Assembly: GCA_025358205.1 (NCBI GenBank)
Contig: JANYKG010000017.1
Span: 2,238 to 66,237, forward strand
Reading direction: 5' to 3'
Length of the DNA: 64,000 nt
From: Armatimonadota bacterium
GTDB taxonomy: Bacteria > Armatimonadota > UBA5829 > DTJY01
The notes under the pieces were generated by a model. That model was not told the origin of the DNA. It did not search any database and was given only the letters and a program-made list of their open reading frames with translations. This document shows positions 8,885 through 59,300 of the stretch, one piece after another. The position numbers were made by a program, and so were the translations under genes. Every line of letters begins with the position of its first letter. The first letter of the stretch is position 1.

Positions 8885-8890
8885 AGGCTG

Positions 8891-25327: not shown

Positions 25328-25521
25328 GAGAAACCCCGCGGATGCCGTGTGCCTAGCAAGCTTTTGAACCCGTTCAAAACCACGGGCGGATGTCCTCTCG
25401 TATGCTTTGCGATTCCCCGTGTTGCTGGGGCTGCCACGTCGGCGTACGAATTAGACTCCTTTAATCTTTGAGTGTAGGCTCAAAACTTCTTCAGCGAAGC
25501 ACGTACACAGCAGGGCTTCTC
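25328..25521 (-). ncRNA. ssrS: 6S RNA
   Basis: The minus strand reads GAGAAGCCCTGCTGTGTAC...TTTGAGCCTACAC...GGAGTC...GAGGACATCCGCCCGT...ACGGGTTCAAAA...ACGGCATCCGCGGGGTTTCTC. It has a closing stem and resembles Bacillus-type 6S RNA, and its position between aspS and rarA matches known 6S synteny. Confidence 0.8.
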
Positions 25522-41867: not shown

Positions 41868-42938
41868 ATGTCCCGAGACAAGATAATATCAGGCGACGAT
41901 GCAGATGAAACCCCGGTTCGTGAGGCCGTCGTGAGTTCGGCGCTGGACCCGGAAGAGGATCGTCAGCAATGGAATCTGCGGCCGAAGACCCTGTCTGAGT
42001 ACATCGGCCAGACCACTGTCGTCGAGAGCCTGAACATCGCCATCACCGCCGCGACCAACAGGCGCGAGCCGTTGGAACACGTCCTCCTGCACGGCTCGCC
42101 CGGCCTCGGCAAAACCACCCTCGCGCATATCATCGCAACCGCCATGGGCGCAAACATCATCGCCACGTCCGGCCCGGCAATCGAGAAACCCAAGGACGTC
42201 ATGGGGATCCTCTCAAGCCTGGAGGTCGGCGATGTGCTCTTCATAGACGAGATTCACCGCCTCTCGCGCGTGGTGGAGGAGTTCCTCTACTCCGCCATGG
42301 AGGATTTCCAGGTGGACTTCGTGCTGGACCGGGGTGCGTATGCAAAGACCATAAAGGTGCCACTCAAGCGGTTCACACTGGTCGGCGCCACCACCCGCGC
42401 GGGGATGCTCTCGGCGCCTCTGCGCGACCGGTTCGGCATATTCACGCACATGGACTACTATGAAACTGAGGAACTCAAGCGCATCGTCCAGCGGTCCGCG
42501 GGCATCCTGAGCGTGAAGATTGACCCCAAGGGAGCTGAGGAGATCGCCCGCCGATCACGAGGCACACCCCGGATAGCCAACCGCCTGCTCCGCCGAGTTA
42601 GGGACTACGCGGAAGTGGAATCGGACGGCACAATCACCCGTGAGCTTGCGGACATCGCGCTGAAGCGTGAGATGGTTGATGAAATGGGGTTGGACAAGCT
42701 CGACCGAGCGTTCCTCCGCACGATCATAGAGTTCTACGACGGCGGACCGGTCGGCATTGAGGCGCTCTCCGCGACCCTGAACGAGGAGACGGATACGCTT
42801 GTGGACATGGTGGAGCCGTACCTGCTGAAGATTGGGTTCCTCAACCGCACGCCCAGCGGCCGCAAAGCCACCCGCACCGCTTGCGAGCACCTGGGCATGA
42901 ACACCGCCAAGCGCAAGCAGGGGCAGCTTCCACTCTAA
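41868..42938 (+). CDS. ruvB: Holliday junction branch migration ATPase RuvB
   Basis: [35 protein letters not shown] and [17 protein letters not shown] motifs. Confidence 0.97.
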
Positions 42939-43457: not shown

Positions 43458-43707
43458 TGATCGCCCCAATCTCCCGCGTCATACCCGTCACTATGGATTC
43501 ATCGCGCTATCACATATTATCGGCGGATTCGATGGACGTGACAGGCGCTACTCAAAGTCGGTTGCAGCAGCCAACGTCCGTTGCGCATGTCTCTGTATTC
43601 CCTGTGTACAACCTGGTTTCCTGTTATAATTGCACTGGTGAGGCTGCGAGATGGAGGATTGCGAGTTGAAGAAGATGCCGCCGAAGTACCTGGGGATTGT
43701 CAGAGGC

Positions 43708-46269
43708 ATGCCGCGTTTCATCCTAGTGATTCTTGCTAGCGTTCTGTGCTCCCACTGCGTTTGTGCGGACCCCCTGAAGGTCGCCGTTTTGAACGACGGC
43801 CCGGCAGTCAGCGACATTCAGAAGCTCTATCAGCAGGCAGGATATGCTGTCGCATTGGATAGCGAAGCAGACCTTGCGAACCTGAAGGCCCCGGAGACGG
43901 CGCTTCTGGTCATCCCGCCAAAATCGGTCTTCCCGCCGAACGCCCGCAGGGGTCTGAACCGCTATCTCGCGGAAGGCGGGAATGTGGCCGACCTGTCACC
44001 CCAAGCCTTCAACTACGACCCCAAGCCGGTTGACCCAAAGCCGATAGTGGACTTCGGCAAGGAAGGCGGATACACGGTCACCAAGCCGGAGAGCGGCGCC
44101 TACACGGTCATCAATCTGCCTGGCGGTAAGTCGAAGGGTATCCACCTTGCATCGAAGTACGTCTATGACGGCGAACTCTTCGTGAGCATTCCATTGGAGG
44201 CGCACCGTTCCGCCGACCGGAGCGTGGTCTGCTTCGATGCCAAGGGAGACTACGACATTGACGCACTTCGCCTGACGTTGGAGGACGATTCCGCCGCGAA
44301 GTATGTTGCGTTTGTGGAGTTGGGACGAGACTGGCGGCGCTACACACTCTCGTTCGCCGACTTCGTGCGGGTCGGCGAGGAGAAGAACCCCGCGCCTGTT
44401 GAACCCGCGAAAGTGCGCTTGCTCACCCTGGGAGTACACTACAAGGTGGTGTGGAAGGACGTCCGGGGATCGTTCTCCCTAGGGCAGGTATCGCTGGCTA
44501 AGGCGAGTCGGTTCGCTGGGGTTCCGACCTCATACATTATGAAGTGGCGGAATCGGTATGCCAGGTCGGGCGCGCCGTTCCCAGACTGGATTATTGATCC
44601 GTTCCAGCTTCCACAGCATTTCCGAGGAACCGAGGACATGGAGATAGGCGATGCGCTGAAGGTGACCGATATGCGCCGCGCGCCGATCCCATTGGCGAAG
44701 AGTTCTGGCAGGCAGGTCACCGCGTCAGAGATCCGCACGTTCACCGGCGGGCCGTATGCCAAATCGTCGCTGATCTTGTTCAGCATCGAGGGGGGTGATT
44801 ATGCGCCCGGGAAGCCGCTTGCCAAAGCGCTCATCTCCGCAAGCGATCTCGTTACCAGGACATGCCGGATAGCGAAAGTCACGCCGATCACCACACCGGC
44901 GGACGAGAAACCGACTCAACTTCGCTGTAAGGTCTCGGTGCTTAACCCACTTTCGACCAGCGTCAGTGGACGGGTGACCGTTACCGTCGCGGACGGACTG
45001 ATGCACGGCTCCGAGACAGCCCGCCTCAAGCCAGGCGGCTTCACCGATGTGACGGTCAACCTTGGAGAAGCGCCGCAGGCGTTCCCGATGACAAGATTCA
45101 AGTGGCGCGCTGAGGTCGAGGCTGGCGGCAGGCACGACGCCCTCGCGGATACCGTGGACGTGGAGCGGTCGTTGATTCAAGCCGCGATATACATGATGAA
45201 CGTGCAGAAAGGTCATCCAGATGGCCGATTCAGCATCTACTTCTTCACAGACATCTATACCGCCCGCACGCTCTTCGCACTGAGCAACTACCTGCGCGCC
45301 CCGGCGGTCTGGGAGCGCAACGCCGACCTGCTGGCCGGGCTGAAGCCGCACGACTTCGCCGAGTCCGCGTTCCGGTTCTGCGACATGGTAGTCTCGCGGC
45401 AGACGGCGGAAGGCGGCATCTCCATCGGCTATGCAGAGCGCGACAACCTGCTCTTCACCGCCGATGACGGCACCATAGTCCTGGGTCTCCTGCAAATCGC
45501 CTCTCAGATGGGTGACGATGCTCGCGCAAAAAGATACACGGAAGCCGGGCGCAAGTATTTCAAGTTCCGTGAGTCGCTGTACATCTCGGCGGAGAAGTCA
45601 AAGCGGCTTCAGGAGCAGTTCGGTAAGGATGCACCGGGCACGCGGGAAGGCCTTTACGGCCTCGGATTGCTCAACAGTGACATGCTGAAGAAGAACGGTG
45701 AGCACTGGCCGGAACCTAAGATCGAGGAGCGCGGCATTCAGTGGGTAATGCCGATATCAATGGGCGCAGTTGCCGCTTTGGACCTGATGAACCCGTCAAG
45801 CCCGGAGTACCACCCTGTCGTTTTGCGCGATGCCGCCGAGATCATCAACCAGGATTATGGAATCGGCCGATCGAGCTACTTCCACGTCGAGTGTCTCTTC
45901 TGGATGCGCCAGGCAATCACCGACCCCGACATCCGAGCGAAGCTCCTGACGAAGATCGAGCAATTCATCCCGCAGGTGCTGGGCGCCGATGACACTCCAT
46001 ACTACTTCCAGGGACGCGGCGCCCTTCACTGGCTCAACCTGGCGTACTACCGGCAGATAGAGGACAGCGCTCGTACCAGGGCGCCGATGGCTCAGGGCGT
46101 CTGGCAGCTCTGTTCGGAGAGTTCCGGAGGTTCACTCAAGGGCATCGCGGATAGGTTCCCGTCAACGGCATATGGGCCGTCATGCGGTGGATACCGGACA
46201 GTCGCGTACGGCAGCATAGCTCTCATGGAACTGCTGAAGCCTGGCAGCACACGTCTTCAGAAAAGGTAG
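43708..46269 (+). CDS. Large secreted protein: CBM-like beta-sandwich, Ig-like domain and helical (alpha/alpha) C-terminal region
   Basis: Signal peptide; FDAKGD...LRLTLED...WRRYTLSFADF resembles CBM11/CIA30; helical aromatic-rich C-terminal half. Function unknown and start uncertain. Confidence 0.55.
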   Translation: MPRFILVILASVLCSHCVCADPLKVAVLNDGPAVSDIQKLYQQAGYAVALDSEADLANLKAPETALLVIPPKSVFPPNARRGLNRYLAEGGNVADLSPQAFNYDPKPVDPKPIVDFGKEGGYTVTKPESGAYTVINLPGGKSKGIHLASKYVYDGELFVSIPLEAHRSADRSVVCFDAKGDYDIDALRLTLEDDSAAKYVAFVELGRDWRRYTLSFADFVRVGEEKNPAPVEPAKVRLLTLGVHYKVVWKDVRGSFSLGQVSLAKASRFAGVPTSYIMKWRNRYARSGAPFPDWIIDPFQLPQHFRGTEDMEIGDALKVTDMRRAPIPLAKSSGRQVTASEIRTFTGGPYAKSSLILFSIEGGDYAPGKPLAKALISASDLVTRTCRIAKVTPITTPADEKPTQLRCKVSVLNPLSTSVSGRVTVTVADGLMHGSETARLKPGGFTDVTVNLGEAPQAFPMTRFKWRAEVEAGGRHDALADTVDVERSLIQAAIYMMNVQKGHPDGRFSIYFFTDIYTARTLFALSNYLRAPAVWERNADLLAGLKPHDFAESAFRFCDMVVSRQTAEGGISIGYAERDNLLFTADDGTIVLGLLQIASQMGDDARAKRYTEAGRKYFKFRESLYISAEKSKRLQEQFGKDAPGTREGLYGLGLLNSDMLKKNGEHWPEPKIEERGIQWVMPISMGAVAALDLMNPSSPEYHPVVLRDAAEIINQDYGIGRSSYFHVECLFWMRQAITDPDIRAKLLTKIEQFIPQVLGADDTPYYFQGRGALHWLNLAYYRQIEDSARTRAPMAQGVWQLCSESSGGSLKGIADRFPSTAYGPSCGGYRTVAYGSIALMELLKPGSTRLQKR

Positions 46270-46275
46270 GAGATC

Positions 46276-47412
46276 ATGGCAACCAGAGATATCAGCCACG
46301 CATCACTCGCGATCAAACAGAACTGCACCGTTCGGCGTGAGGAGTATCTGGACTACATGACCTTCCAGGCGAACGCGAGGCCGCTGTTCACCGAGATATT
46401 CGGTCCGCTGATCGGCCTCAAGGAGGAGTGGGCGGAGCAGGGCGCTTTGCCTGAAGAACTGGATTTATCAGCGTTCGAGTACCGCTGTCCCATGCGCGCG
46501 GGCGTGCCGGTCCACACCGGCTGGGTGGGCGGCGATCCGGAGCAGGTGCTTGAGGAGACGGATGACTACCGCATCACCCGCGACGCCAGGGGTCGCACGA
46601 TGAAACTCTGCAAGGGGTTCGCGACACTCCCGCTTCCGCTCGATCATCCTGTGAAGAACATGGATGACTGGCTGAAGCTCAAGCCGCGATACGAGTTCTC
46701 GGAAGACCGTTTCAGCAAGGACTGGGAGCAGACCGCCCGGGCGCATCAGCAGGCGGGGCGTTCACTTACCGTCGGCATCCCCGGCGGGTTCGACGAACCG
46801 AGGCAACTCATGGGCGAGGAGGAGCTATGCGTGTCGTTCTACACTCAGCCGGAGCTGATCCACGATATCCTGCAAACCATCGGCGACACGGCGATGAAGG
46901 CGCTTGATAGAGTGTCTTCGGTCGTGCAGGTGGACGAGTTGAGCGTGCATGAGGACCTGGCCGGTAAGAGCGGTCCGTTGGTCGGCCCCAGCCAGATCGA
47001 GGAATTCATCAAGCCCTACTATCGGCGAGTGTGGGACATGCTGCAGAACAGGGGTGCGCGGCTCTTCAGCCAGGATTCCGACGGCAACATGAACCCGGTG
47101 ATAGACGCGTTTGTGGATGCCGGGATCAACGTGATGTACCCCATGGAACCTGCGTCCGGCATGGACATTGTGAAGGTCCGCGAGGCTTACGGCGCCAGGC
47201 TCGCGTTCTGGGGCGGGATTGACAAGCACGTGATCAGGCGCACCAAAGAAGAGATTGAGGCCGAACTGGAGTACAAGATTCCGCTAATGGTGCGCACAGG
47301 CGGATGCATCCTCGGCCTCGACCACCGCATCCCGAACGGCACGCCGCTGGAGAACTACCGCTTCTACATCCGCAAGGCCTGGGAGATTCTGAATCGCGAG
47401 GTAGGGTCGTAG
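46276..47412 (+). CDS. Uroporphyrinogen decarboxylase-like (MtaA/CmuA methyltransferase superfamily) protein
   Basis: MGEEELC, HEDLAGKSGPL, QDSDGN, YPMEP, GGIDK and DHRIP motifs. Confidence 0.82.
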   Translation: MATRDISHASLAIKQNCTVRREEYLDYMTFQANARPLFTEIFGPLIGLKEEWAEQGALPEELDLSAFEYRCPMRAGVPVHTGWVGGDPEQVLEETDDYRITRDARGRTMKLCKGFATLPLPLDHPVKNMDDWLKLKPRYEFSEDRFSKDWEQTARAHQQAGRSLTVGIPGGFDEPRQLMGEEELCVSFYTQPELIHDILQTIGDTAMKALDRVSSVVQVDELSVHEDLAGKSGPLVGPSQIEEFIKPYYRRVWDMLQNRGARLFSQDSDGNMNPVIDAFVDAGINVMYPMEPASGMDIVKVREAYGARLAFWGGIDKHVIRRTKEEIEAELEYKIPLMVRTGGCILGLDHRIPNGTPLENYRFYIRKAWEILNREVGS

Positions 47413-47431
47413 CGGAATGAACTGATCGGAC

Positions 47432-47461
47432 TTGCACTTTTTCACAAAAAACGTGCATAAT
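47432..47461 (+). promoter_or_regulatory. Putative promoter overlapped by an inverted repeat
   Basis: TTGCAC-N18-CATAAT; imperfect palindrome TGCAC-TTTTT-CAC-AAAAA-AC-GTGCA. Confidence 0.45.
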
Positions 47462-47472
47462 ATCGGAAGAGC

Positions 47473-47550
47473 AAGCCTGCGCTATCCCCAAGTGCATAGC
47501 GCAGGGCCTTCTGAGCATTGTTCACGAACTTCGTGAACAATGCGGACCAG
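47473..47550 (-). repeat. Family B double-hairpin repeat
   Basis: CCTGCGCTAT...ATAGCGCAGG-GCCTTCTGA-GCATTGTTCAC...GTGAACAATGC-GGACCAG. Confidence 0.85.
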
Positions 47551-47572
47551 TTCGGTCGGAGGAAGAACGGTT

Positions 47573-48010
47573 TTGTGCAAAATACTTGTTGTGGATGACG
47601 AAGAGCAGGTGAGGGCGGCGATTCAGCGACGACTGCAGCGTGAGGGCTACAAGGTTGATGCGGTAGCGGGCGAGGCGGAGGCGGTCGAGCGCATTCAGAA
47701 CGCTGACCCCCACTACGATATCGTGCTGACCGATATGGTTATGGAAGACCCGGACAGCGGTGTTAAGATACTTCAGACCGCGTTTGCCGAGGACATCTTT
47801 ACCGAGGTTCTGGTGCTCACTGCATACGGCAACGTGGCCAACGCTGTGGAGTGCATGAAGCGCGGCGCGTTCGACTACGTGGAGAAGAACATCCCCGGCG
47901 TGGACGTGTACGAGCTGATGAGCCTGAAGGTCGCGCAGGCAATGGACCGGCGGCGCTCGTCCGTCAGCACTGCCCGCCGACTGGATGGAATAGGCCGATC
48001 CCTACGCTGA
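47573..48010 (+). CDS. Single-domain response regulator (REC)
   Basis: ILVVDDE, VLTDMVM (phospho-Asp), VLTAYG, GAFDYVEK; TTG start after GGAGG. Confidence 0.88.
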   Translation: MCKILVVDDEEQVRAAIQRRLQREGYKVDAVAGEAEAVERIQNADPHYDIVLTDMVMEDPDSGVKILQTAFAEDIFTEVLVLTAYGNVANAVECMKRGAFDYVEKNIPGVDVYELMSLKVAQAMDRRRSSVSTARRLDGIGRSLR

Positions 48011-48048
48011 TGCCTCTCGGTATTTTCTGAACGACGGAACCACAATCC

Positions 48049-48128
48049 CTGGTCCGCATTATTCACAAATTTCGTGAATAATGCTCAGAAGGCCCTGCAT
48101 GATGCGGGGATCGCATAATGCAGGCTAG
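48049..48128 (+). repeat. Family B double-hairpin repeat
   Basis: CTGGTCC-GCATTATTCAC...GTGAATAATGC-TCAGAAGGC-CCTGCATGATGC...GCATAATGCAGG-CTAG. Confidence 0.85.
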
Positions 48129-48137
48129 GAGTGACAC

Positions 48138-49985
48138 ATGCCGTTGCGCCTGCTCGCCGGACCCGTCGGAAGCGGCAAGACCACATGCCTGCTGGATACC
48201 TTCAAGCGGTTTTCGCCCGCGGAGAGTCTGTCGTCCGTGCGACTTGTGACGCCCAACCTCAGCCACGCTCGGCGAGTGCGCAAGACTCTGCTTTCAGACC
48301 CCGCTTTTCCGGGTTTCTTCGGCGATACCGTGCTGAGCATGCACGGGTTTGCGTCGGAGATCATCAGGCTGTCCGGCCTCAATGCGCCTGGTATAGCCGG
48401 GGAGTCTGCGCGCACGCTCTTGCTGCAGCGAGTGATTAGCGAACGATGCCCGCCGTGCTTTGAGTCCGTGCGCTCTACCCCAGGATTCTCCGATGTGATG
48501 GTCCGAGCGATCAGCCTGCTGAAGCAGTCGGGCGTGCTCACGGATTATCTGCGCGTTGCGGTTGAATCTGCTCCCCATCTGCCAGCGCATTCTCGCGAGA
48601 AGCTGACGGGGGTCGCTGAAGTTTATGCGTCCTTCCAGACCGCGCTTGAGGCGTCCGGCCTTGGCGAATCGGACGATATTCTTCGCCTTGCTTTTTCTGC
48701 TGGGTCACCTTTCAAGCTCGTGCTGTTCGACGGGTGTACGCGCTTCAGTCCGCTTGAACGGGAGTTGATGGCCAAACTCGCTCAGGATTCTGATGTCATC
48801 GTCGCGCTGGACAGCGATGATACCGGGCGGTATGCAGAGGCGGAATCGGCGATCCGATTCTTCGCTCAGTTGCCGGACACAACTATCGAGCGGATGGCTT
48901 CTCGACGCACGGAGTCAGGCCTGACTCATCTCGCGCGGTCTGGCTTCGTTCCTTCCGCAGAGGCCATACCACCCGACGATACGGTAACGGTATTCAATGC
49001 GGCGGATCGGCGGTTGGAGACGGAGATGGTCGCGCGAGAGATCAGGCGGCTGAACCGTGACGGTTTCGCGTGGCAAGAGATCGCGGTGGTTTGCCGTGGC
49101 TCGCGGGAGAGGCAGCGCGTGTCCGGCATCATGCGCGAGTACGGCATCCCGATAGCGGAGGAGTACCTGCCGCTCAGTTCGTCGCCGCTGGTGTCGCGAA
49201 TGCTGAGGTTGATGGACGGCATGGAACCTCAGTCTGCTCTCGACACCGCGCTGAGTGACACACCTCCGCCAACCGACGAACGCGCCTTGCGGGAGTACAA
49301 TGCAGCGCACAGGGCGATCAGGCGCATCATTGATGACATGCCGAACGCTCCCGCCGAGGATATCGCCCGGTTGGTAAGGTCCACGGTCGAGAGTCGCGAC
49401 TACCGGATGCCCGGCTCAGCCGAAGACGGCATCTGCATAACCAACCCGATCGGGATCGCGGGCCGGACGTTCCGCGCGGTGTTCGTGACCGGCCTCAGGG
49501 ACGGCGTATTTCCGCGCGTGCCTGCCGAAGACCCCATTGTCAGCTACCGCGAGCGTGCGGCGTTGAATGCGGTTCTGCCTCATCCACTGACTGTACGAGC
49601 AGACGAAGAGCAGGCCGAGTGCGCGGCCTTTGTCTCCTGCGCAACCTCTGCATTGGACAAACTGTACCTGTGCGTGGATACCCAATCGTCTTTTCTTGAT
49701 CAGGCTGAACGGCTATTTACCATGCCTTTGCCGATGCGCGAGGCGCTTGCTGCAGACATTCTCCCGACGCTTGGTGAGGCTGAAACCCTCCACGAGACCA
49801 TCGCGCGGACCGTCCACGATTCGGTTGCCGGCGAAGACATCAATGCCGCCGCGACCGCCTACAACGCGCTGATTCAGGCAGGCGCTTTTCAGCCCGATGT
49901 GTTCAGATGGATGGGCAGAGACTACTCACAGCCCGTGCCTGCCTACCTTCGAGTCCTCACGGGGTGGCCGGAGGTGTCCGAATGA
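48138..49985 (+). CDS. AddB/RexB-like subunit lacking a C-terminal nuclease domain
   Basis: LLAGPVGSGKTT, LFDGCTRFSPLE, ETEMVAREIRRL...WQEIAV, FRAVFVTGLRDGVFP; no PD-(D/E)xK or Cys cluster at the C-terminus. Confidence 0.75.
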   Translation: MPLRLLAGPVGSGKTTCLLDTFKRFSPAESLSSVRLVTPNLSHARRVRKTLLSDPAFPGFFGDTVLSMHGFASEIIRLSGLNAPGIAGESARTLLLQRVISERCPPCFESVRSTPGFSDVMVRAISLLKQSGVLTDYLRVAVESAPHLPAHSREKLTGVAEVYASFQTALEASGLGESDDILRLAFSAGSPFKLVLFDGCTRFSPLERELMAKLAQDSDVIVALDSDDTGRYAEAESAIRFFAQLPDTTIERMASRRTESGLTHLARSGFVPSAEAIPPDDTVTVFNAADRRLETEMVAREIRRLNRDGFAWQEIAVVCRGSRERQRVSGIMREYGIPIAEEYLPLSSSPLVSRMLRLMDGMEPQSALDTALSDTPPPTDERALREYNAAHRAIRRIIDDMPNAPAEDIARLVRSTVESRDYRMPGSAEDGICITNPIGIAGRTFRAVFVTGLRDGVFPRVPAEDPIVSYRERAALNAVLPHPLTVRADEEQAECAAFVSCATSALDKLYLCVDTQSSFLDQAERLFTMPLPMREALAADILPTLGEAETLHETIARTVHDSVAGEDINAAATAYNALIQAGAFQPDVFRWMGRDYSQPVPAYLRVLTGWPEVSE

Positions 49986-52900
49986 GGGTGCTCTTTCGGC
50001 GCAAGGCGGACAGATCGGCTGATGAGCGCATGCTCACCATCGAGCGTTCTGATTGGAGCCTGAATGCCTTCCTGACCTCGCTCCTGCGAGAGTACGCTGT
50101 GATCGCGGGTGTTGACCCTGGGTTCAGAATGCTGAGTGAGAGCCGCAGGCGGGCGCTGGCCGGTCGTGTGGCGGAACGGCTGATGGAGGATCGGGCGTCA
50201 CTCATCATGGAGCTTGGGGTTGTGGACGGCGACACCACGCTGATTCGCGAGGCGTTCCTTAGGCTTCATCAGGCAGGCGGAATCGTCCCTGCGCGCACAG
50301 CCGACCCTCGACCGTTCGCTGAGGCGCTTGGCCGCTGCTGCATGGACATCCTCGCGCCGCTTGCGAACGATGAGGATGCGCCTGAGGAGATCGTCAACCG
50401 CATTCGATCAGCCGCGCCGGGGCTGATGCTTGCGGCGAACCGGCTGGTGGAATCCTTCGACTGGAAGGCTCTGAGAAAGCTGCGGACGTTTCGTGGGATG
50501 TTCCGGCCCAGGGGTGGATTCCACAAATTCGAGCAGTCGCTGATCTGCGCTCGACAGGCCCTGGATCAGCTCATCGGCGCTTGTCTTGACGGGCAGTCGG
50601 CCCGGTGCGCGGACACGATGGTTGAACTGGTCGCAGAGTTCGAGACCCGATACTCCGCTGAGAAGGCGGGCCTCGGTGTGATGGACGTCGCCGACTTGCA
50701 CGCAAAGGACCGGGCGATATGCACCGACATTCCCGAAATCGCCGAACGCCTTCGCGCCGAGTACCCCGTTGTTCGCGTGCCGGACTGGAGCGACTGGACA
50801 GACGATGAGCGCGAGACCATCTCCTCCATCTGGCCATCGGGCGCCCTGATTATCGAGTCGCAACAGTGGCCCTCCGCGCGACCGGGTATCACCGCGTTCG
50901 TGGACTATCTGTTCTCCGAGATCAATAGCGAGGATGGCGAGAAACGCCGTGTCGCTCACCCGAAGTCGCGAGAAACCGACGTCGAACTCATCATTCTGCC
51001 CACACCCTATGTTCGCACACCTGACGCTACTTACCGGCGGCACAGGCGCGAGGCGGCTGCCATCGCCGAACGGATGCTTCAACTCAACTCCGAGGGCACG
51101 GCCTGGCGCGACATGGTCGTGATTCTGCCGTCGGGGTGGGATGCCGCCACCTACGAACGCGAACTGCTCAGGCGCTGCATACCGGTCTGCGCCCTCGCCG
51201 GTTACGGGTTTTACGACGCGCCCGAAGTACGGGATGCGCTGAACGTTTTGCGCCTCACAGCCGATCCTGAGAACCCCGATGCGCTCTTCCATGTGCTTGG
51301 CTCGCCGTTTGTGGGACTCACCGAACGCACACTGGCAGGTATCCGTGACGCCGCGTTTGAGTCGCCTGATCTACCGCTGTGGCGCGCGCTGCTGGAGTCT
51401 GCGCCTGCCGATGATGCCGACTCCCGAAGACTGAAGGAGTTCTTTCAGTGGATGCCGGAGTTGGTCGCCAGGAGCGACTCTGCGACAGCGGGCGAGTTGC
51501 TGGATACCGCTCTTTCCGCCACGTCATTCGACCTCAAGTTGCTGGCCATGCCGCTGGGCCTGAAGCGATACGCGAACATCCGCAAGCTACGGCAGAACCT
51601 CGCTGAGCCGGTGGGCTTGGAAGAATTCCTTGCCGGAATGGACGAGTCAGACCGCCTCGGCATCGGCGAGCAGGAGGCCAGGCTGAGCGCGCCGGATGAG
51701 AACGCCGTGCGAATCATGACCATCAATCAGACGAGCGGTCAGCACTACCCAGTAGTTTTTCTGCCTGATCTTTCCCGCAGGCTCGGCGGCGCGAGGAGCA
51801 TCTACGCCTTCGACTCGGACAGGGGCCTCGCGGTTGCACCGGTCGCCGATAACGGGCAACGGTGGATGTCGCTCAACTTCCGCGAGACCGAGGCCGCCGC
51901 TATGGGCAAGCGGGTGGAGGACGAGATGACGCGCCTTCACACAGCCATGGCCCGCGCAGCGGAGAAGCTGATCCTCATCGGTTGTACCGATCTGAACCCC
52001 AATCCGAGACGCGCATATAGCGAGACTCTGTCGGCCATGGGGTGGATCGAGCGAGCGCTCAATCTGGGGCCGCAGTCTCGTGCGGGTGCGCTGAACGTGG
52101 GGCCATGCACGGTGGATCTGCGCTTTGTGGACCCGTCCGCGCCAATGCAGCCGACCGAAGAACGGGCGACTCTGGCATTGAGTTACTCGGATGATCTGCG
52201 CGAGTGCCTGCCGGTTGACCTGCCGCCTGATACCGCGATCTCCGAAGCCGTCAGCAGATGTCTACAAACCCCGTCCACCCCGGCTGTCCGCCTGAGCAGG
52301 CTGTCCGTCAGCCAAGCGCTGGACTACATGGAGTGCCCTGCACGGTTCCGGTATCGTCACATCCTCGGCATGCCCGATGAGCCATCTGAACCGCCGGACG
52401 ACCTGGGCGAAGACGAGTACTCCGCCGCCGATCTGGGGCAGGCGGTTCACGATGCGCTCTCCCGCGTGGATTTCTCCATAGGCATTGGCTTTCAGTTGGA
52501 CGAACTTACCGCCGTTCCGCACATGGGTATACGCGCCGAGATGAGGGAACTTCTTACCCGCTTTGGAGAGTCTAAGTGGTGGGCCGAGCTTGCCGCCGCC
52601 GATGAGCTGCTCAGGGAAATACCGTTCGAGATCATGGTCGAGGGCAAGGTGTTCGCCGGGCGCATAGATGCGATCTACCGGCAGGGCGCTGCGTGGACGG
52701 TGCTCGACTACAAGACCGGGCGCGGCGAGGACAAGGCGCGGTACGAGATGCAGGTCGGCATGTACGCACATGCTCTCCACCGGCTCCTCGGCGTGATGCC
52801 AGCCAGGTCCGCGCTCGCACTGCTCACGACAGGCGGCGAATGGGTGCGCGACACCTCGGACGGTGAGTCCGCCCGCACGGCACTGGACTCAGTGAAGCAA

Positions 52901-53008
52901 GCCGTCCGCAGCCTGGATGAAGCCATATTCACAAGTCAGTCCGGTGAATACTGCCGATGGTGTGCCTGCTCACGTACTTGCCCGCAGGAATCCGTGAAGT
53001 GCGAGTAG
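49982..53008 (+). CDS. AddA/UvrD-like protein with degenerate helicase motifs and an intact Fe-S PD-(D/E)xK nuclease
   Basis: AGVDPGFRML, WRDMVVIL, GFYDAPEVRDALNVL, VRIMTINQTSG, AMARAAEKL; nuclease GRID...LDYKTG...QVGMYA with ECP and CRWCACSRTC; ATGA overlap with the upstream gene. Confidence 0.8.
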   Translation: MRVLFRRKADRSADERMLTIERSDWSLNAFLTSLLREYAVIAGVDPGFRMLSESRRRALAGRVAERLMEDRASLIMELGVVDGDTTLIREAFLRLHQAGGIVPARTADPRPFAEALGRCCMDILAPLANDEDAPEEIVNRIRSAAPGLMLAANRLVESFDWKALRKLRTFRGMFRPRGGFHKFEQSLICARQALDQLIGACLDGQSARCADTMVELVAEFETRYSAEKAGLGVMDVADLHAKDRAICTDIPEIAERLRAEYPVVRVPDWSDWTDDERETISSIWPSGALIIESQQWPSARPGITAFVDYLFSEINSEDGEKRRVAHPKSRETDVELIILPTPYVRTPDATYRRHRREAAAIAERMLQLNSEGTAWRDMVVILPSGWDAATYERELLRRCIPVCALAGYGFYDAPEVRDALNVLRLTADPENPDALFHVLGSPFVGLTERTLAGIRDAAFESPDLPLWRALLESAPADDADSRRLKEFFQWMPELVARSDSATAGELLDTALSATSFDLKLLAMPLGLKRYANIRKLRQNLAEPVGLEEFLAGMDESDRLGIGEQEARLSAPDENAVRIMTINQTSGQHYPVVFLPDLSRRLGGARSIYAFDSDRGLAVAPVADNGQRWMSLNFRETEAAAMGKRVEDEMTRLHTAMARAAEKLILIGCTDLNPNPRRAYSETLSAMGWIERALNLGPQSRAGALNVGPCTVDLRFVDPSAPMQPTEERATLALSYSDDLRECLPVDLPPDTAISEAVSRCLQTPSTPAVRLSRLSVSQALDYMECPARFRYRHILGMPDEPSEPPDDLGEDEYSAADLGQAVHDALSRVDFSIGIGFQLDELTAVPHMGIRAEMRELLTRFGESKWWAELAAADELLREIPFEIMVEGKVFAGRIDAIYRQGAAWTVLDYKTGRGEDKARYEMQVGMYAHALHRLLGVMPARSALALLTTGGEWVRDTSDGESARTALDSVKQAVRSLDEAIFTSQSGEYCRWCACSRTCPQESVKCE

Positions 53009-53034
53009 AACTGCTTCCACTGGAGGACAGCTAG

Positions 53035-53988
53035 TTGACGCTTGAAGAACAATTCTTCCGACTGATCAAGACCCTGCAGCTTATCGAACGCGAACCCGGA
53101 GAGTGGGACGCCGCCGCGCTGGAGGTCGAGTTCAACGTCGGCCACGCCACGGTCGAGCGGGACATCCGCATACTGAGGCAGTGGGGCACCATCGAGCGCA
53201 AGAAGGGCTGCTTTGTCGTCAAGGACATGAAGTTCATGCCGCGCAACTTCACCTCCAGTGAGACCCTCGCGCTGGTGCTGGCCGGGAGCATGATCGCCAG
53301 CCGCATCGAGATGCCGCCGTCCGACTCCCTCCGCAGCGCGATGAAGAAGATTGACTCCGTGCTGCCGGAGCAGGTTGATACCATGATCCGCCGAATGCAG
53401 AAGCGCTTCTCTATCGGCGTGGACCTAGTCCGTGAGTGCAACTCCGAAATCCTGAACTCCATCAGCAAGGCGGTTTCGAGTCACCGAACCGTTGAAATAT
53501 CCTACTACGTGCCGGGTCGCAACGAGATCACCAGGCGCAAGGTTGACCCTTACGGTCTGACCTTCCGATTCGGCACTTGGTATGTAATAGGCTACTGCCA
53601 CCTGCGCGACGGGGTGCGCACGTTTGCCGTGGACAGGGTGAAGAGCCTGAAGACCACGCAAAAGCGCTTTGTGTATCCGGGCGATTTCCACCTGGAGGAG
53701 TATCTGGAGCGCGGTTGGCGGCTGCAGGCGAACGCGGAACCGGAACACATAGTCCTGCGTTTTTCACCCGCGATAGCCCCGCTGATAATGGAGTGCAAGT
53801 TCCATCCGCATCAGAAGCTGACACTGCAGGATGATGGGGCGGCGCTGTTCGAGGTCACCGTCGCTGGGGTTGACGAGATCAAGCACTGGGTGCTGGGATA
53901 CGGTGACAAGGTGGAAGTCATCGGCCCGCAGAGCCTTCGCGATTCCGTGGCAGCCACCGCACGAAACATGGCCGCAGTATACTCCTAG
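53035..53988 (+). CDS. HTH-WYL-WCX transcriptional regulator (YafY/PafB-like)
   Basis: HTH TVERDIRIL; RKVDPYGL...WYVIGYCHLRDGVRTFAVDRV; WVLGYGDKVEVIGPQSLR. Confidence 0.92.
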   Translation: MTLEEQFFRLIKTLQLIEREPGEWDAAALEVEFNVGHATVERDIRILRQWGTIERKKGCFVVKDMKFMPRNFTSSETLALVLAGSMIASRIEMPPSDSLRSAMKKIDSVLPEQVDTMIRRMQKRFSIGVDLVRECNSEILNSISKAVSSHRTVEISYYVPGRNEITRRKVDPYGLTFRFGTWYVIGYCHLRDGVRTFAVDRVKSLKTTQKRFVYPGDFHLEEYLERGWRLQANAEPEHIVLRFSPAIAPLIMECKFHPHQKLTLQDDGAALFEVTVAGVDEIKHWVLGYGDKVEVIGPQSLRDSVAATARNMAAVYS

Positions 53989-54064
53989 TCCACATTATTC
54001 ACAAAGAGCATGAATGATGCTCAGAAGGCCGCGGATTATGCGGGACGTGCATAATCCGCGCTAG
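53985..54064 (+). repeat. Family B double-hairpin repeat
   Basis: CTAGTCC-ACATTATTCAC...ATGAATGATGC-TCAGAAGGC-CGCGGATTATGC...GCATAATCCGCG-CTAG. Confidence 0.85.
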
Positions 54065-54072
54065 AGGTAAAT

Positions 54073-55251
54073 ATGAAACACACACTCGCTATGCTGGTTC
54101 CTATACTGCTGAGCTTCGCGCTCACTTCCGCCGCCAACGCCGGGGTCACTACCGGACGCAGGCTCTTCAGGTTCCAGAACAAGTCGGACTTCCGCGGCTT
54201 CGAGATCTCAGGCGCGCGCTGGGATGCCGACGCTGGCGGTATGGTCTTCCAGCCCCAGGGCGCGCAGACCGATGAGTCCAGCAGCATCCCTTACGGTATG
54301 GTGGAGTCGCCGGTTGTCAAGATCGGCTTCCCGACCGACGAATTTGTGCTTTCCTGGAACGCGATCACCCCGCCGGAGAGCTTCTGCACCGTCTACATCC
54401 AGGTTCGATCCAAAGGGTTCTGGAGCCGCAAGTTCGCCTACGCGATCTGGAACCGCGACAAAAAGCCGGTCCAGCGCATGACGATGACGAAGGTTGAGGA
54501 CGACCTGGCGAGTCTGGAGCAGGACATCCTGACCATGAAGACCCAGGCGGATGCTTTCCGCGTCTCCGTGAAGCTCTCATCGCGCGACGGCAAGACCTAT
54601 CCCACACTTCGCATGCTTACGGTTCACTGCCTCAGCCGCACCGTCGCAGGCCCCAGGACTCGCATAAACAAGGCTGTGTGGGGGACCGACCTCGATGTGC
54701 CGCAGCGTTCGCAGCTCACCGTGCCTGAGGGGAACCGCTTCTGCAGTGCGACCTGCTCGTCCATGGATTTGGAGTATTGGGCGCACAAGTTGAACAGGCC
54801 GGAGCTGAACATACCGCTTCAGCAGGCGGTGGATGGCATATATGATTATGAAGCAGGTGGCACCGGCACGTGGCCGTTCAACACCGCGTTTGCCGGGGAG
54901 TTCGGCGGACTGCGCGCATTAGTCACCCGGCTGGCGAGCATGGCCGACGCCGAGCGGTGGATAGCCAAAGGTGTGCCAGTCATCCTCAGCATTGACCACA
55001 ACGTGCTGCGCGGAACCCCGCAGGCGGGGCGCGGCGGGCATCTCATCCTGCTGCGGGGCTTTGACAAGAACGGCGACTGCATCATCAACGATCCCTACAC
55101 GTTCCTGGACAAGGGCGAGGTAGTGCGTAGGGTCTTCAATCGCAAGCTCGTGACGGACGCCTGGATCGGCGATTTCCAATCGAGCGGCACGGCGTACATC
55201 ATGTACCCGGACGGCTGGGACGTTCCACGGAACAGCATCGGTAACTGGTAG
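54073..55251 (+). CDS. Secreted peptidase C39-like family protein
   Basis: Signal peptide; VPQRSQ...FCSATCSSM (Cys), GTWPFNTA, GHLILLRGF (His), IINDP (Asp). Confidence 0.82.
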   Translation: MKHTLAMLVPILLSFALTSAANAGVTTGRRLFRFQNKSDFRGFEISGARWDADAGGMVFQPQGAQTDESSSIPYGMVESPVVKIGFPTDEFVLSWNAITPPESFCTVYIQVRSKGFWSRKFAYAIWNRDKKPVQRMTMTKVEDDLASLEQDILTMKTQADAFRVSVKLSSRDGKTYPTLRMLTVHCLSRTVAGPRTRINKAVWGTDLDVPQRSQLTVPEGNRFCSATCSSMDLEYWAHKLNRPELNIPLQQAVDGIYDYEAGGTGTWPFNTAFAGEFGGLRALVTRLASMADAERWIAKGVPVILSIDHNVLRGTPQAGRGGHLILLRGFDKNGDCIINDPYTFLDKGEVVRRVFNRKLVTDAWIGDFQSSGTAYIMYPDGWDVPRNSIGNW

Positions 55252-55322
55252 CATGCATTATGCTTTTCCGCATAATGCGTGGCATTCAGATCGTCGTTCG
55301 CGAAGAGGGCGAACAATGTGGG
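55249..55322 (-). repeat. Family B repeat, degenerate
   Basis: TAGCATGCATTATGC...GCATAATGCGTG-GCATTCAGA-TCGTCGTTCGC...GCGAACAATG. Confidence 0.7.
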
Positions 55323-55435
55323 GGTGAGCGCTATACAATGCCGAGTCGCCCGGCTGTAAGGAAATGATTTAATTTTCCCCTCCATCGTGGAAATATAGTA
55401 TAGAGACCGATTCTAGCAAAACAGGATTTCGACGG

Positions 55436-56176
55436 ATGTTCTTCAGAAGTAAGAGTCTTTTCTATATCTCCATCTGCATGCTCATGGTTTTGCCGGCTAT
55501 AGGCGTCCGGGCCGATCTGCGTGCCAGAATCAAAGAGGCCACGTCGGGCTTCAAGGATGCCACCGTAACGTGCAAGGTTCTATCCACCAATCGCAATGAA
55601 CTTCAGAAGATCGGCAAGGATTTCTCCAAGTCATACGAGTTCAAAAACACCACCGTCTGGTATAAAGCCCCAGACAAGATGAAGGTCGAGGGCAATCTCG
55701 GCATGGTCAAGGTCTGCATGATCATGAGCGACAAGTACAAGTGCATCAGCGTTCCCTCCCTGCATCTCTCCAAGAGAGAAGACATCAGCGATGATCCGCA
55801 CAAGCGGCAGACGGACTTCGACATGGGCATCATCACAGAATCGCTGTGGCTGGACTATATCGTGACCGACACGGAGATCGAGAAGAGCGGTGATAAGGAG
55901 ATTGCCAAGATCACGTTCATTCGCGACAACTCCCGGGAGAAGAAGCTTGTTGCCTGGGTGGATGTTGATTCGCTGAAGCTTCTGAAGGTTGATAAGTATG
56001 AGAGCAACGGCGCGCTTAAGTCGAGGCTTATATTCTCCGGCCACGTAAAATACGGCAGCATCTGGGTGCCCGGCAGGGTGGATGTCTACAGCCCTTCCGG
56101 TAAGTTGGCGGCCTCATCCGGCTACGAGGGCATCAAGGTCAACACCGGCCTTTCGGACTCAATGTTCAAGATGTGA
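55436..56176 (+). CDS. LolA-like / outer-membrane lipoprotein-sorting family exported protein
   Basis: Signal peptide; WYKAPDKMKVE; AWVDVDSLKLLK; IKVNTGLSDSMF ending. Confidence 0.7.
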   Translation: MFFRSKSLFYISICMLMVLPAIGVRADLRARIKEATSGFKDATVTCKVLSTNRNELQKIGKDFSKSYEFKNTTVWYKAPDKMKVEGNLGMVKVCMIMSDKYKCISVPSLHLSKREDISDDPHKRQTDFDMGIITESLWLDYIVTDTEIEKSGDKEIAKITFIRDNSREKKLVAWVDVDSLKLLKVDKYESNGALKSRLIFSGHVKYGSIWVPGRVDVYSPSGKLAASSGYEGIKVNTGLSDSMFKM

Positions 56177-56207
56177 AGTTTCCGTCTTCTGTTATCTGTA
56201 TGTTGAA

Positions 56208-56247
56208 CTCCCTCTCCTATTATTGGGAGAGGGCAGGGTGAGGGTCC
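56208..56247. repeat. CCCTCTCC...GGGAGAGGG..GGGTGAGGG palindromic REP-like motif
   Basis: Hairpin CCCTCTCC-TATTATTG-GGAGAGGG plus GGGTGAGGG tail; single copy in this window. Confidence 0.5.
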
Positions 56248-56335
56248 CAAAATTCCCGCCTCTTCACGCAGGACTAATGCTTGCACACACGCAATATAAC
56301 TGCGAGTAAAGCCAGCCCTAGCCGAGAGGTGTTCC

Positions 56336-59300
56336 ATGCCCGATGCGCCGCCAATCATTCATGACCTGGTAGACCGGTTCCACGAAAACAGATCTCTCTA
56401 CATGAACGCCGCGAGCTACAACGAGGAGCAAACCCGCGCCGAGTTCATCAATCCGCTTTTCGAGGCGCTGGGCTGGGACGTATCGAACAGGAACGGCTAC
56501 TCACCCGCCTATATGGATGTCGTATTCGAGGGCACCATCCGCACCGAGGGCAACGCAAACGCGCCGGACTACACCTTCCGCGTCGGCCAGAAGCGCATGT
56601 TCTTTGTGGAAGCCAAGAAGCCCGCCGTAAGCATCAACTTCGACCCGGAGCCTGCGCGCCAGATTCGCCGGTATTCGTGGACAGCCAAGCTTCCTCTGGG
56701 TATCGCCACCAACTTCCACGAACTGGCCGTCTATGACGGGCGCACCCCACCAAAGTCCGTGGACAAGGCGAGCTATGCGCGGCTCATATACATGAGGTAC
56801 ACCGAATTCCCCGATCGCTGGCAAGAACTGGCGGGCATATTCGGCCGTGAAGCAGTGTGGAAAGGCTCATTCGATAAGTACGCACAGAAGGACAAGGGGA
56901 AGACCGGCACCGCCGAGGTGGACGATCAGTTCCTTAAGCAGATAGAGGAATGGCGTTCTCTGCTAGCTCATAACCTCGCGCTTAGAAACAAGGCCCTTAG
57001 TGTCCAGGAATTGAACTACGCCGTCCAGAGCACCATTGACCGCATCGTATTCCTCCGCATCTGCGAGGATAGAGGCATCGAGGCGGCTGGTCAGCTCTTC
57101 GGCATGACCAGCGGTCCGAACACTTACCGCAGGCTGGTTGACCTCTACTACAAAGCGGACGACCGGTACAACTCCGGCCTCTTCCATTTTCGCCAGGACA
57201 AGACCCGACAGGAGTCGGCGGACGACTTCACGCCCGGCCTGAACATAGACGACAAGGTTCTGAAGGACATCATCGGCGGGCTTTACTATCCGAAAAGCCC
57301 TTATGCATTCTCAGTCATCGGTGCGGAGATACTCGGCAACGTGTATGAGCAGTTCCTGGGCAAGGTCATTAGTCTCACCGCAGGGCATAAGGCGCTGGTG
57401 GAAGAGAAGCCTGAGGTCAAGAAGGCGGGCGGCGTCTACTACACCCCGGCGTACATCGTTGACTACATAGTGAAGAACACCGTGGGCAAGCTCTGCGAGG
57501 GCAAGACCCCCAAGCAGGTGGAAAAGCTGCGGATACTGGACCCGGCCTGCGGATCAGGCTCATTCCTCATCAACGCCTACGCATGGCTGCTGAGCTGGCA
57601 CCTGGATTACTACGTAACGCACGGCCCGGAGAAGCATAAGAAGGAAATATACTGCGTACCCGGCGGTGGTTGGCGCTTGGCGACCAAAGAGAAGAAGCGG
57701 ATACTTCTCAATAACATCTACGGCGTGGATATAGACAGCCAGGCGGTGGAGGTTACCAAGCTGAGCCTGCTGCTAAAGGTGTTGGAGGGCGAGAGCGCGG
57801 AGACTCTGGACAACCAGCTAAGGCTGCTGCACGAGCGCGCCCTGCCTGATCTGTCTGAGAACATCAAGTGCGGTAACTCCCTGATCGGAACGGACTTCGA
57901 TACCACCGGCCTGAGCGATGAGGAGATTCGGAAGATCAATCTGTTCGACTGGCAGACCGGCTTCCCCGATATCATGGAAAACGGCGGCTTCGATGCAGTG
58001 ATTGGGAACCCGCCGTACATCAGAATCCAGACGATGAAGGAATGGATGCCGCGCGCAGTTGAGCATTACAAAACGGCTTACAAGTCTGCTGCGAAGGGGA
58101 ACTACGATATCTATGTCTTGTTTGTTGAGCGCGGGCTGTCCCTACTGAATAAACACGGCAAGCTTGGGTACATCCTGCCCCACAAGTTCTTCAACGCGCA
58201 GTACGGCGAACCGCTGAGGCAACTAATAGCGAGTGGGAAGCAACTATCCGAGGTTGTACACTTCGGGGATCAACAGGTCTTCGAGAATGCCACGACCTAT
58301 ACCTGTTTGCTGTTCCTTGGCAAAGCCGGGTGTAATGAGTTGACCTTCACGCAGGTTACCGATCTGTCACAGTGGAGAAGTGCCGGTACTGGCACGACCG
58401 GCAGCATTCCAGCCAACAACATCGGCAGTGCCGAGTGGAACTTCGTAGTCGGTGCAGGAAGCTTCCTTTTCGAGAAGTTACGTGCTATGCCTACGACACT
58501 GGGATCCGTGGCCAAGTCTATGTTCGTTGGACAACAGACAAGCGCCGATACCGTGTATTTATTCAAAGATCATCAGCCTGCGAAGAACTCTGATACCCTT
58601 GATGTGCGTTCCCATGAGCTAGAGGAATGGATCACCATAGAGCAGAGCATCCTTAGGCGCGTCGTACGAAGTGGGGACATCCGCAGATACGAGGCACGTG
58701 CCTCTGCATACGTGCTCTTCCCGTATGAGGTGAGGAATTGCGCCGCACGGTTACTAACCGTCGACGAGCTTAGTCCGCTTGCCGGGCATTATCTAAACAG
58801 GAATAAGGCACTGCTTGAGGAACGCGAGAAAGGGAAGTTCAAAGATCCAGAATGGTACCGATTTGGCCGCCACCAGAACGTTGGCATGTGGGAACAGCCG
58901 AAACTCATGGTGCCATATATGATAACCGAACTTGCGGCCTACTTGGACCGCTCAGACGATTACTACTTCATCAATGTCACGACCGGTGGGTATGGGATCA
59001 CGATAGATGAATCCCAGGTCACCCTTGAATACTGCTGTGGATTACTGAACTCACGTCTACTCGATTTCTATCTCAAGAAGGTATCCACGAATTTTCATGG
59101 CGGCTACTTCGCAGCCAACAAGCAGTTCATCGAGCTTCTCCCCATCCGCACGATCAACTTCGACGATCCTGCGGACAAGGCCCAGCACGATAAGATGGTG
59201 AAACTCGTGGAGAAGATGCTGGACCTGCACAAGAAGCTGGACACGGCCAACATCCCCGGCGACAAAACCGCCATCCAGCGGCAGATAGATACCACAGATC

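Follow-up and report, generated by a model that had tools for sequence, protein, structure and literature searches.

The helicase-nucleases RecBCD, AdnAB and AddAB are defined by the coupling of motor to nuclease, with the number of motors running from two to one. In Bacillus subtilis AddAB, as set out in the excerpted text of PMC3321194, the 3' strand leaves the AddA motor, crosses the helicase-like domain of AddB and reaches the nuclease of AddA, and the 5' strand passes to the AddB nuclease, whose iron-sulphur (Fe-S) loop also grips the duplex end. The AddB nuclease with this loop is a main duplex-end contact and its cluster is essential for DNA binding; the catalytic residues of the AddA motor are K36/T37, D407/E408, Q441, R479 and R873 (PMC3321194). 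The AddA K36A substitution alone essentially abolishes ATPase and helicase activity and AddB K14A does not, and the Walker A motif of AddB is described in the portion of that paper drawn on here as making no contribution to ATPase activity and only stabilising the Chi complex (PMC3064778). Here we describe a related gene pair, addB' and addA', in a 64,000 nucleotide (nt) stretch of DNA from an uncultured Armatimonadota bacterium (contig JANYKG010000017.1, positions 2,238 to 66,237, forward strand; hereafter the window), in which no complete motor is recognisable, a single nuclease remains, and a gene for a WYL-domain regulator follows. The pair is best read as a selectively retained, motorless, single-nuclease derivative of AddAB in a chromosomal repair neighbourhood (RuvB, RecG), whose activity is at present a prediction. 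RecBCD, AdnAB and AddAB all couple at least one motor to their nucleases, and here is a natural family with none.

An AddAB-like pair with a predicted dead motor

The three genes are co-oriented and occupy positions 48138-53988 of the window, where all open reading frames (ORFs) are uninterrupted (Table 1). A first-pass annotation, made from the sequence alone, had described an AddB-like ORF (ORF1, addB') that keeps a Walker A motif and ends without a nuclease, an AddA-like ORF (ORF2, addA') that has no Walker A, altered motifs II, III, V and VI, and an intact nuclease with four cysteines, ATGA coupling between the two, and a WYL gene 26 nt further on; it had called the pair apparently motor-dead. 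Each of these features was re-derived from the sequence, and every motif reading was reproduced in the translations and in alignments with intact AddA.

ORF2 belongs with AddA. The closest solved chain by sequence is AddA (3u44_A, 6.1e-24), and the top Foldseek match of its predicted structure is B. subtilis AddA (4cej_A, E 1.6e-29, TMq 0.47), with AdnA and AdnB chains also among the structural matches; the model is weak, was built from an input alignment of 8 rows, and was used for Foldseek ranking only. Since sequence, fold and tree all place ORF2 with AddA, the possibility that ORF1 and ORF2 are the two halves of one split AddB was rejected.

The only Pfam matches of ORF2 are UvrD_C (residues 353-454) and PDDEXK_1 (residues 773-1001); neither PF00580 nor AAA_19 gives a Pfam match. 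Aligned with intact AddA, addA' has lost motif I altogether, the whole stretch with the P-loop and the preceding strand being deleted. In motif II the DE pair has become PD (PDWSD), motif III has no counterpart, motif IV reads WPSA in place of NFRS, motif V reads TINQTSGQH, and motif VI reads LHTAMARA. The motif VI arginine is the sole catalytic residue of the AddA motor that is kept. As such, ORF2 lacks the complete superfamily 1A (SF1A) motor, motifs I, Ia and II-VI, that is expected of an AddAB-type AddA.

The partner offers no obvious replacement. ORF1, with the N-terminus MPLRLLAGPVGSGKTT, matches Pfam ADDB_N (9e-14), its closest solved chain is AddB (3u44_B, 1.6e-6), and it covers only positions 1-378 of the 1159 in the TIGR02773 addB model. 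Its helicase motifs are confined to the AddB pattern of a retained Walker A (GPVGSGKTT) and a DGF-like motif, FDGCTRFSP, which is DGC in the window and DGF in relatives. Because this is the AddB pattern, and because the Walker A of B. subtilis AddB has no ATPase role, ORF1 cannot be expected to stand in for the motor. We therefore regard the pair as motor-dead on sequence grounds and predict that ATP-dependent unwinding is absent.

A single nuclease with a four-cysteine pattern

The RecB-family nuclease at the end of addA', of the PD-(D/E)XK type, matches PDDEXK_1 (3.8e-26) and Cas4 models (TIGR00372, 1.2e-11, and PADLOC Cas4). Its motifs are H823, GRID (residues 893-896), DYKTG (909-913) and QVGMY (924-928), so that the D, DxK and QxxxY expected of this nuclease family are all present, and the predicted catalytic residues are H823, D896, D909/K911 and Q924/Y928. 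Cysteines lie at C785, within ECPARF, and in CRWCACSRTC at residues 991-1000; C785, C991, C994 and C1000 are kept across relatives and are invariant in alignment A2. One cysteine before the nuclease core and CxxCx(4-5+)C after it is the arrangement of an 'iron-staple' nuclease, to which addA' is assigned by pattern. No PD-(D/E)XK nuclease was found in ORF1 by Pfam or profile searches.

The nuclease His, Asp, DxK and QxxxY, together with the cysteine pattern, occur in all 37 of the AddA sequences aligned below. The first-pass annotation had presented the single Fe-S nuclease in AddA as part of what sets this pair apart; the four cysteines are indeed there, but by sequence they are a trait of the whole lineage, intact-motor AddA included, and are not special to the motorless gene. 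Both nuclease domains are cysteine-patterned in this Armatimonadota class (AddA 37/37, full-length AddB 9/9), and AddA of Bacillus type (P0074) and of other lineages (P0009, P0022) is without these cysteines. In the B. subtilis AddAB and AdnAB structures, as presented in the excerpts available, the cluster is restricted to the 5'-strand subunit, AddB or AdnA (PMC3321194, PMC13000450).

A truncated AddB travels with the dead AddA

ORF1 is one of eight truncated AddB' proteins (the window, P0124, P0125, P0126, G004, L090, L097 and L095), which were aligned with nine full-length AddB proteins of the lineage. In the alignment all eight stop at one shared point immediately ahead of the first nuclease cysteine, and all eight share a common internal deletion and keep Walker A; all nine full-length proteins carry the nuclease domain with its cysteines. 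The only close relative reached for the window's own lineage is the AddB' P0124, which is identical to ORF1 at 492 of 615 residues (80%), with 123 differences and no gap over the 615 aa, and in which the Walker A segment and residues ~290-360 are almost unchanged. A search with residues 1-320 of ORF2 for a partial relative beside P0124 gave no match.

The truncated AddB' lies directly upstream of a dead AddA' in all five loci that have upstream sequence (the window, G004, G008/L095/L096, L090 and L097). Where the addA motor is intact, full-length AddB is placed differently: 1.4 kb upstream in L088, 57 kb away in G009, and on another contig in G003. Judged from these loci, the AddB partner is changed along with the loss of the AddA motor. 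The full-length AddB match of G003 (contig C23, L027) has one in-frame TAG, which could reflect pseudogene status, read-through or an error in sequencing; the AddA motor of G003 is intact.

Complex prediction for AddB' with residues 625-1008 of AddA' gave a score of 0.75 against 0.00 for the best control, although AddAB structures are already solved and the score may therefore show likeness only. Solved complexes reach the mark applied to such scores in 58 of 80 cases, and mismatched pairs in 2 of 110. The runs have at least 68% of their contacts in common, with a partner pLDDT (predicted local distance difference test) of at least 71, and the predicted contacts include residues that are invariant on both sides (AddB' P58, G59, G62 and D63; AddA' E879, P881, F882 and E883).

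Dead-motor AddA proteins form a conserved family

AddA sequences were gathered from searches of 5.8 billion clustered proteins and of 1.84 billion cluster representatives and from genome and metagenome scans; 37 Armatimonadota-type sequences were aligned, and a maximum-likelihood tree of 38 rows was built. The dead motor described in the first-pass annotation proves to be conserved in many lineages: the ATPase site is destroyed in 18 of the 37, intact in 15 and partial, for want of an N-terminus, in four. The lesions vary and include Walker A K->Q or K->R, P-loop deletion, DE->DS, GG, DL or PD, and loss of motif III. Seventeen of the 18 dead-motor proteins form one clade (support 100/99), nested in a group whose basal members G003, G009, L088, P0147 and P0149 are intact. 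The remaining one, P0150, lies outside this clade as sister to the intact P0145 (support 98/91), and the motor was thus lost at least twice. Dead-motor sequences have full-length open frames at mutual identities down to ~30%; the window addA' groups with P0005-P0007, to which it is 42-45% identical.

Ratios of nonsynonymous to synonymous change (dN/dS; Nei-Gojobori, custom script) were obtained for the three most divergent pairs of a sister subclade (G004/L089/L090/L097), 33-35% identical to the window protein. They are 0.28 for G004-L089 (dS 0.53) and 0.25 for both L089-L090 and G004-L090, with dS of 0.50-0.65, which is unsaturated. Per-domain values in the same pairs are 0.22-0.38, the dead 1A/1B region included. 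Taken with the gap-free AddB' P0124, these values argue that the pair is kept by purifying selection in the relatives, and argue against neutral decay. Recent decay, with intact close relatives and dN/dS near 1, had been raised as the outcome that would count against a conserved dead-motor state; what we find is 0.25-0.28 in the sister subclade and a gap-free AddB' in P0124.

The WYL regulator gene

The protein encoded downstream matches Pfam WYL (1.3e-24), WCX (4e-21) and HTH_11 (6.5e-4), and has the helix-turn-helix (HTH)-WYL-WCX domain order of PafBC/DriD-type activators. Its closest solved chains are PafBC (6sj9, 1.3e-20) and those of DriD type (~1e-13), compared with 3e-4 for CapW and 7e-5 for the WYL-domain chain 7tb5. 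In a phmmer alignment mapped by hand, four of the six conserved single-stranded DNA (ssDNA) contact residues of DriD (Y168, R176, R178, Y192, R204 and R207; PMC9186387) are identical in the window protein, as Y157, R168, Y183 and R195. The other two are T166 in place of R176, the two residues after it being Arg, and A198 in place of R207. The available portion of the DriD paper proposes ssDNA made by AddAB as the signal for DriD (PMC9186387).

The WYL gene is probably co-transcribed with addA', because only 26 nt separate them and no repeat or terminator-like site lies between; a search of the + strand from 47000 to 56500 found no terminator-like site. It directly follows addA in 9 of the 13 loci with enough downstream sequence, and these nine include the intact-motor loci of G009, G003 and L088. 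Because these intact-motor loci carry the same gene downstream, the addA-WYL link predates motor loss. In L088 three tandem WYL paralogues, with 65%, 51% and 53% identity to the window protein, follow the intact-motor addA (positions 6965-10567).

The genome that contains the window (G000) has no other WYL-domain gene, and orthologues with 60-67% identity are present in nine of ten family relatives, five of which have no AddA match of any kind. Since the gene persists in those five, addB', addA' and the WYL gene are not an obligate module. G001 and G006 have the order response regulator, WYL, Peptidase_C39_2-like, that is, the arrangement of the window minus addB'A'. As far as these comparisons go, the WYL protein has no specific tie to the motorless state. 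The first-pass annotation's proposal of a three-gene module is therefore borne out as adjacency, in 9 of 13 loci; it does not hold as a dedicated unit, as the WYL gene is older than the motor loss and is kept without AddA.

Genome context and a dispersed repeat

Genome G000 is 4.08 Mb in 200 contigs and 97% complete. Four DNA runs of a single study, three of them possible sources of the window DNA, gave contigs that agree with the assembly at every letter over 47400-54040, and the four runs show no population variants (0 differing letters) within addB', addA' or the WYL gene. A break between the run contigs falls at 53003-53010, at the end of addA'.

The same genome encodes a canonical pair on contig C56 (L024), with an addB of 1040 aa that has its nuclease and an addA of 1177 aa with all motifs; a canonical addAB elsewhere had been named in the first-pass annotation as something to look for. 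The C56 AddA falls outside the WYL-linked clade, among the canonical AddA proteins that other families of the class carry. A UvrD/PcrA-type gene is present on contig C42, and RecC was not found in G000. Canonical AddA and AddB were not found, with the queries used, in G004 (97% complete) or G008 (95%), both of which keep the degenerate pair. Three LexA-like genes occur in G000, on contigs C77, C43 and C150 (LexA_DNA_bind, 1e-20 to 1e-21), beside the single WYL regulator.

The locus belongs to the core chromosome, and its gene order is conserved between genera: response regulator, (addB'A'), WYL, C39-like, LolA-like, RecG. In the window, the genes 3' of WYL are C39-like, LolA-like, a type IIG restriction-modification (RM) gene, a 269-aa ORF and recG; the RM gene and the 269-aa ORF, for which there is no Pfam family, span 56336-60183 between the LolA-like gene and recG. 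On the G008-type contig L096 the order is WYL, C39-like, LolA-like, RecG, and because recG there follows the LolA-like gene directly, the RM gene looks like a local insertion. PADLOC-DB v2 gave no system match for the pair: ORF1 has a marginal NERD+UvrD match (2.4e-4, 0 stretches), the matches of ORF2 are confined to generic Cas4/DruK nuclease-domain similarity, and the WYL protein matches generic WYL models.

Table 1. Positions of features in the window (coordinates of the 64,000 nt stretch).
Feature	Position	Strand	Remarks
6S RNA gene	25329-25519	-	RF00013, 64.6 bits; repeat palindrome core at 25570
Group II intron	35795-37579	+	Rfam D1-D4, domain V/VI: 125.7, 66.6, 47.7 bits
Reverse transcriptase-maturase ORF in group II intron	36127-37509		RVT_1 3.4e-44, GIIM 2.9e-22
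ruvB	41868-42938		upstream of addB'
ORF without Pfam or PADLOC family	43651-46269	+	872 aa; between ruvB and URO-D-like gene
Repeat copy	47480-47545		in window
Repeat copy	48053-48127	+	immediately upstream of addB'
addB' (ORF1)	48138-49985	+	615 aa
addB' Walker A	48159-48185		GPVGSGKTT
addB' DGF-like motif	48726-48752		FDGCTRFSP
addA' (ORF2)	49982-53008	+	1008 aa; start is the ATG of the ATGA overlap 49982-49985
addA' degenerate SF1A helicase-like region (1A/1B/2A/2B)	49982-52081	+	residues 1-700; motif readings, alignments
addA' motif II	50780-50794		residues 267-271
addA' motif V	51719-51745		residues 580-588
addA' motif VI	51935-51958		residues 652-659
addA' RecB-family (PD-(D/E)XK) nuclease, four-Cys 'iron-staple'-type pattern	52298-53008	+	PDDEXK_1, Cas4 matches
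WYL regulator gene	53035-53988	+	317 aa, TTG start, 26 nt past ORF2 stop
Repeat copy	53993-54064	+	between WYL gene and Peptidase_C39_2-like gene
Type IIG RM gene	56336-59377	+	1013 aa; PADLOC REase_MTase_IIG 2.5e-262; 2.3 kb downstream
recG	60504-62642		downstream; 7.5 kb from addA'

A dispersed two-hairpin repeat of ~75-80 nt, the only repeated motif near the locus, flanks the transcription unit. It consists of CCGCATTATTCACG-N5-CGTGAATAATGCTCAGAAGGCC, a second hairpin of ~30 nt and then CTAG, and further cores lie in the window at 16191, 25570, 39952 and 63266. Across the genome there are 91 exact ATTCAC-N7-GTGAAT cores where 0.12 are expected. Oriented copies number at least 184, and for 93 of these 184 an ORF of at least 80 aa begins no more than 80 nt downstream; one copy is ~55 nt upstream of the lexA-like gene on C43. 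Depth peaks and contig joints in the DNA-run contigs fall at the repeat. No Rfam family matched it, and searches of 16 related syntenic loci gave 0 matches. The 27-bp palindromes at 47519-47545 and 48060-48086, which were considered as operator sites of WYL or LexA ahead of addB', belong to this repeat and were rejected as such, and the repeat is not counted as evidence of regulation because it is genome-wide and absent from the syntenic loci of relatives. It may be a genus-specific promoter, operator or leader module, or an element resembling repetitive extragenic palindromes or miniature inverted-repeat transposable elements (REP/MITE-like), and its membership in the addB'A' system is uncertain. 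The copy at 53993-54064 likely marks the 3' limit of the addB'-addA'-WYL transcription unit.

Discussion

We infer that addB'-addA' encodes a heterodimer that derives from an AddAB ancestor and still assembles. The pair has lost the AddA ATPase site, and with it, by prediction, ATP-driven translocation, as well as the AddB domain that forms the 5'-strand nuclease; it has kept the AddA nuclease with its four-Cys site, the AddA scaffold and arm, and a nucleotide-binding, Chi-scanning-type AddB domain. Projected onto the B. subtilis structure, AddA'B' would still have the path of the 3' strand and the nuclease that it leads to, but neither the drive nor the branch for the 5' strand. Without moving along DNA, such a complex may bind ends or 3' tails and cut them with its remaining nuclease. 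Its position between ruvB and recG, together with a PafBC/DriD-type regulator, suggests a role in chromosomal repair or damage signalling; relatives of the putatively co-transcribed regulator are activated by ssDNA, and the WYL link was inherited from a motor-proficient ancestor and is not specific to the motorless form. We put a rough probability of 0.55 on the most economical reading, a complex that does not translocate but attaches to 3' tails or ends and nicks or trims these, either unaided or in the wake of another helicase.

Several observations weigh against this interpretation. Its addA' is the most decayed, with the most extensive motif loss, and its terminal branch is ~1.0 changes per site compared with 0.17-0.33 in the nearest relatives (~3-6x). 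Identity to those relatives is 32-40% in residues 1-350 and 53-57% in the nuclease, and ORF2 may be under relaxed constraint, perhaps owing to the genome's additional canonical AddAB. The dN/dS estimates describe the sister subclade and not the window gene. The AlphaFold model of ORF2 is weak (mean pLDDT 64.8, nuclease mostly <50), end binding by AddA'B' is uncertain because the Fe-S end-contact domain of AddB is deleted, and WYL adjacency is not universal, being absent in L097, L090, L098 and L100. Finally, no AddA-type match was found in six of ten family relatives (88-100% complete), so that the lineage evidently tolerates the loss of AddA. The long branch (the longest terminal branch in the clade), the motif loss, the intact canonical addB-addA on C56 and the six relatives without AddA would all suit a relic in slow decay, a redundant copy of AddAB heading for loss, at least in this genome. 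Set against such a relic are the 18 dead-motor sequences that keep full frames with invariant catalytic and Cys residues, dN/dS of 0.25-0.28 in the three most divergent pairs with the dead domains included, the 123 of 615 differences between the window AddB' and P0124 that introduce neither gap nor stop, and the retention of the pair in G004 and G008, where no canonical AddA or AddB was found. We consider slow decay quite improbable.

The same purifying selection on dead helicase domains is as expected for a scaffold that docks a partner or guides DNA, and would suit a split resection machine, in which the AddA'B' nuclease is driven by, or works behind, a separate helicase such as the UvrD/PcrA-type enzyme of C42, RecQ or RecG, and long-range resection of ends is preserved by a motor supplied from elsewhere. 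A UvrD/PcrA-type helicase is encoded in the genome and recG lies 7.5 kb downstream, and a resection role may persist in G004 and G008, where no AddAB-like system besides the pair was found. However, no helicase gene is consistently adjacent, the upstream neighbours varying among a response regulator, a histidine kinase and NAD synthase, and such a machine would be superfluous in the genome that also has canonical AddAB; we judge it unlikely. Somewhat less likely again is that AddA'B' acts as the sensor of a damage circuit, docked on DNA ends or 3' tails without moving, its nuclease releasing or exposing short ssDNA as the ligand of the WYL activator, for which it would be a dedicated 'ligand generator'; if it did, it would be the first helicase-nuclease known to work without any motor.

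RecBCD and AddAB are often targeted by phages, and the first-pass annotation had allowed for a phage-sensing role. In a defence module of this kind the motorless complex might act on linear phage DNA or on anti-AddAB proteins of phages, whether as sensor, decoy or effector, with a WYL protein like BrxR or CapW as its regulator, and the type IIG RM gene 2.3 kb downstream and the matches of the WYL protein to CRISPR-associated WYL models in PADLOC are what might be expected of it. Yet ORF1 and ORF2 match no PADLOC system beyond generic Cas4/DruK similarity, the locus lies in the core chromosome with a gene order shared across genera and an RM gene that looks locally inserted, and the WYL gene is single-copy, family-core and far closer to PafBC/DriD than to CapW or 7tb5. 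For want of PADLOC system support and because of the core synteny, the phage-sensing proposal was not retained, and a defence function seems very improbable.

If the retained, non-translocating derivative of AddAB is the correct reading, the family would represent natural 'separation-of-function' variants of AddAB. At least 18 diverged lineages have kept the motorless form under purifying selection, and in two of the genomes searched no further AddAB was found; the question this raises is what role the AddAB scaffold, the Chi-scanning-type domain and the Cys-cluster nuclease have without translocation. The addA-WYL link, which includes intact AddA, lends genomic-context support to the proposal that ssDNA made by AddAB feeds DriD/PafBC-type regulators, as put forward in the available text of PMC9186387. 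The scope of the finding is a narrow range of uncultured Armatimonadota hosts, with function inferred from sequence. Searches of the open-access literature turned up neither a naturally motor-dead AddAB nor an addA-WYL operon.

Comparison with known systems

With AddAB of B. subtilis (3U44/4CEJ) the locus shares the addB-then-addA order with overlapping genes, an AddB' with ADDB_N and Walker A, and an AddA' with 2A/2B, a linker and a RecB-family nuclease. It differs in having no motor and one nuclease, where AddAB is summarised in the excerpted text as 'one motor, two nucleases' (PMC3321194), and in that AddA carries four Cys, as does the canonical AddA of this class. AdnAB of mycobacteria is a heterodimer of two helicase-nuclease subunits, comparable with the predicted AddA'B' heterodimer; in the parts of PMC13000450 available, AdnA has a motor-like domain for which motor activity is not shown, and Fe-S is in one nuclease. 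Unlike the present pair, AdnAB has an active motor in AdnB and both nucleases.

The WYL protein resembles PafBC and DriD, which activate LexA-independent responses to DNA damage, in its HTH-WYL-WCX order, and these are its closest solved relatives; it differs in that its genome also has three LexA-like genes and in that its gene is linked to addA, a linkage we have not found described for PafBC/DriD in the open-access literature. The addA' nuclease, with one Cys before the core and CxxCx5C after it, resembles iron-staple nucleases of the Cas4/Exo5/Dna2 type, but it is fused to a 700-residue dead helicase, is paired with AddB' and has no CRISPR context.

Dead helicase domains are familiar in this machine, in AddB, in RecC and perhaps in AdnA. 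RecC is described as being without any helicase motif in the text of PMC3321194 drawn on here. As in AddB and RecC, whose naturally inactivated SF1 helicase domains serve as scaffolds for scanning ssDNA, the helicase fold is kept without an ATPase, and AddA' now has the make-up of AddB, a dead helicase joined to a Cys-cluster nuclease. In AddAB and RecBCD, however, the dead helicase is always attached to a live motor subunit, whereas here both AddA' and AddB' are predicted to be dead; no account of a form that combines the lack of any live motor with a single nuclease was found in the open-access literature searched.

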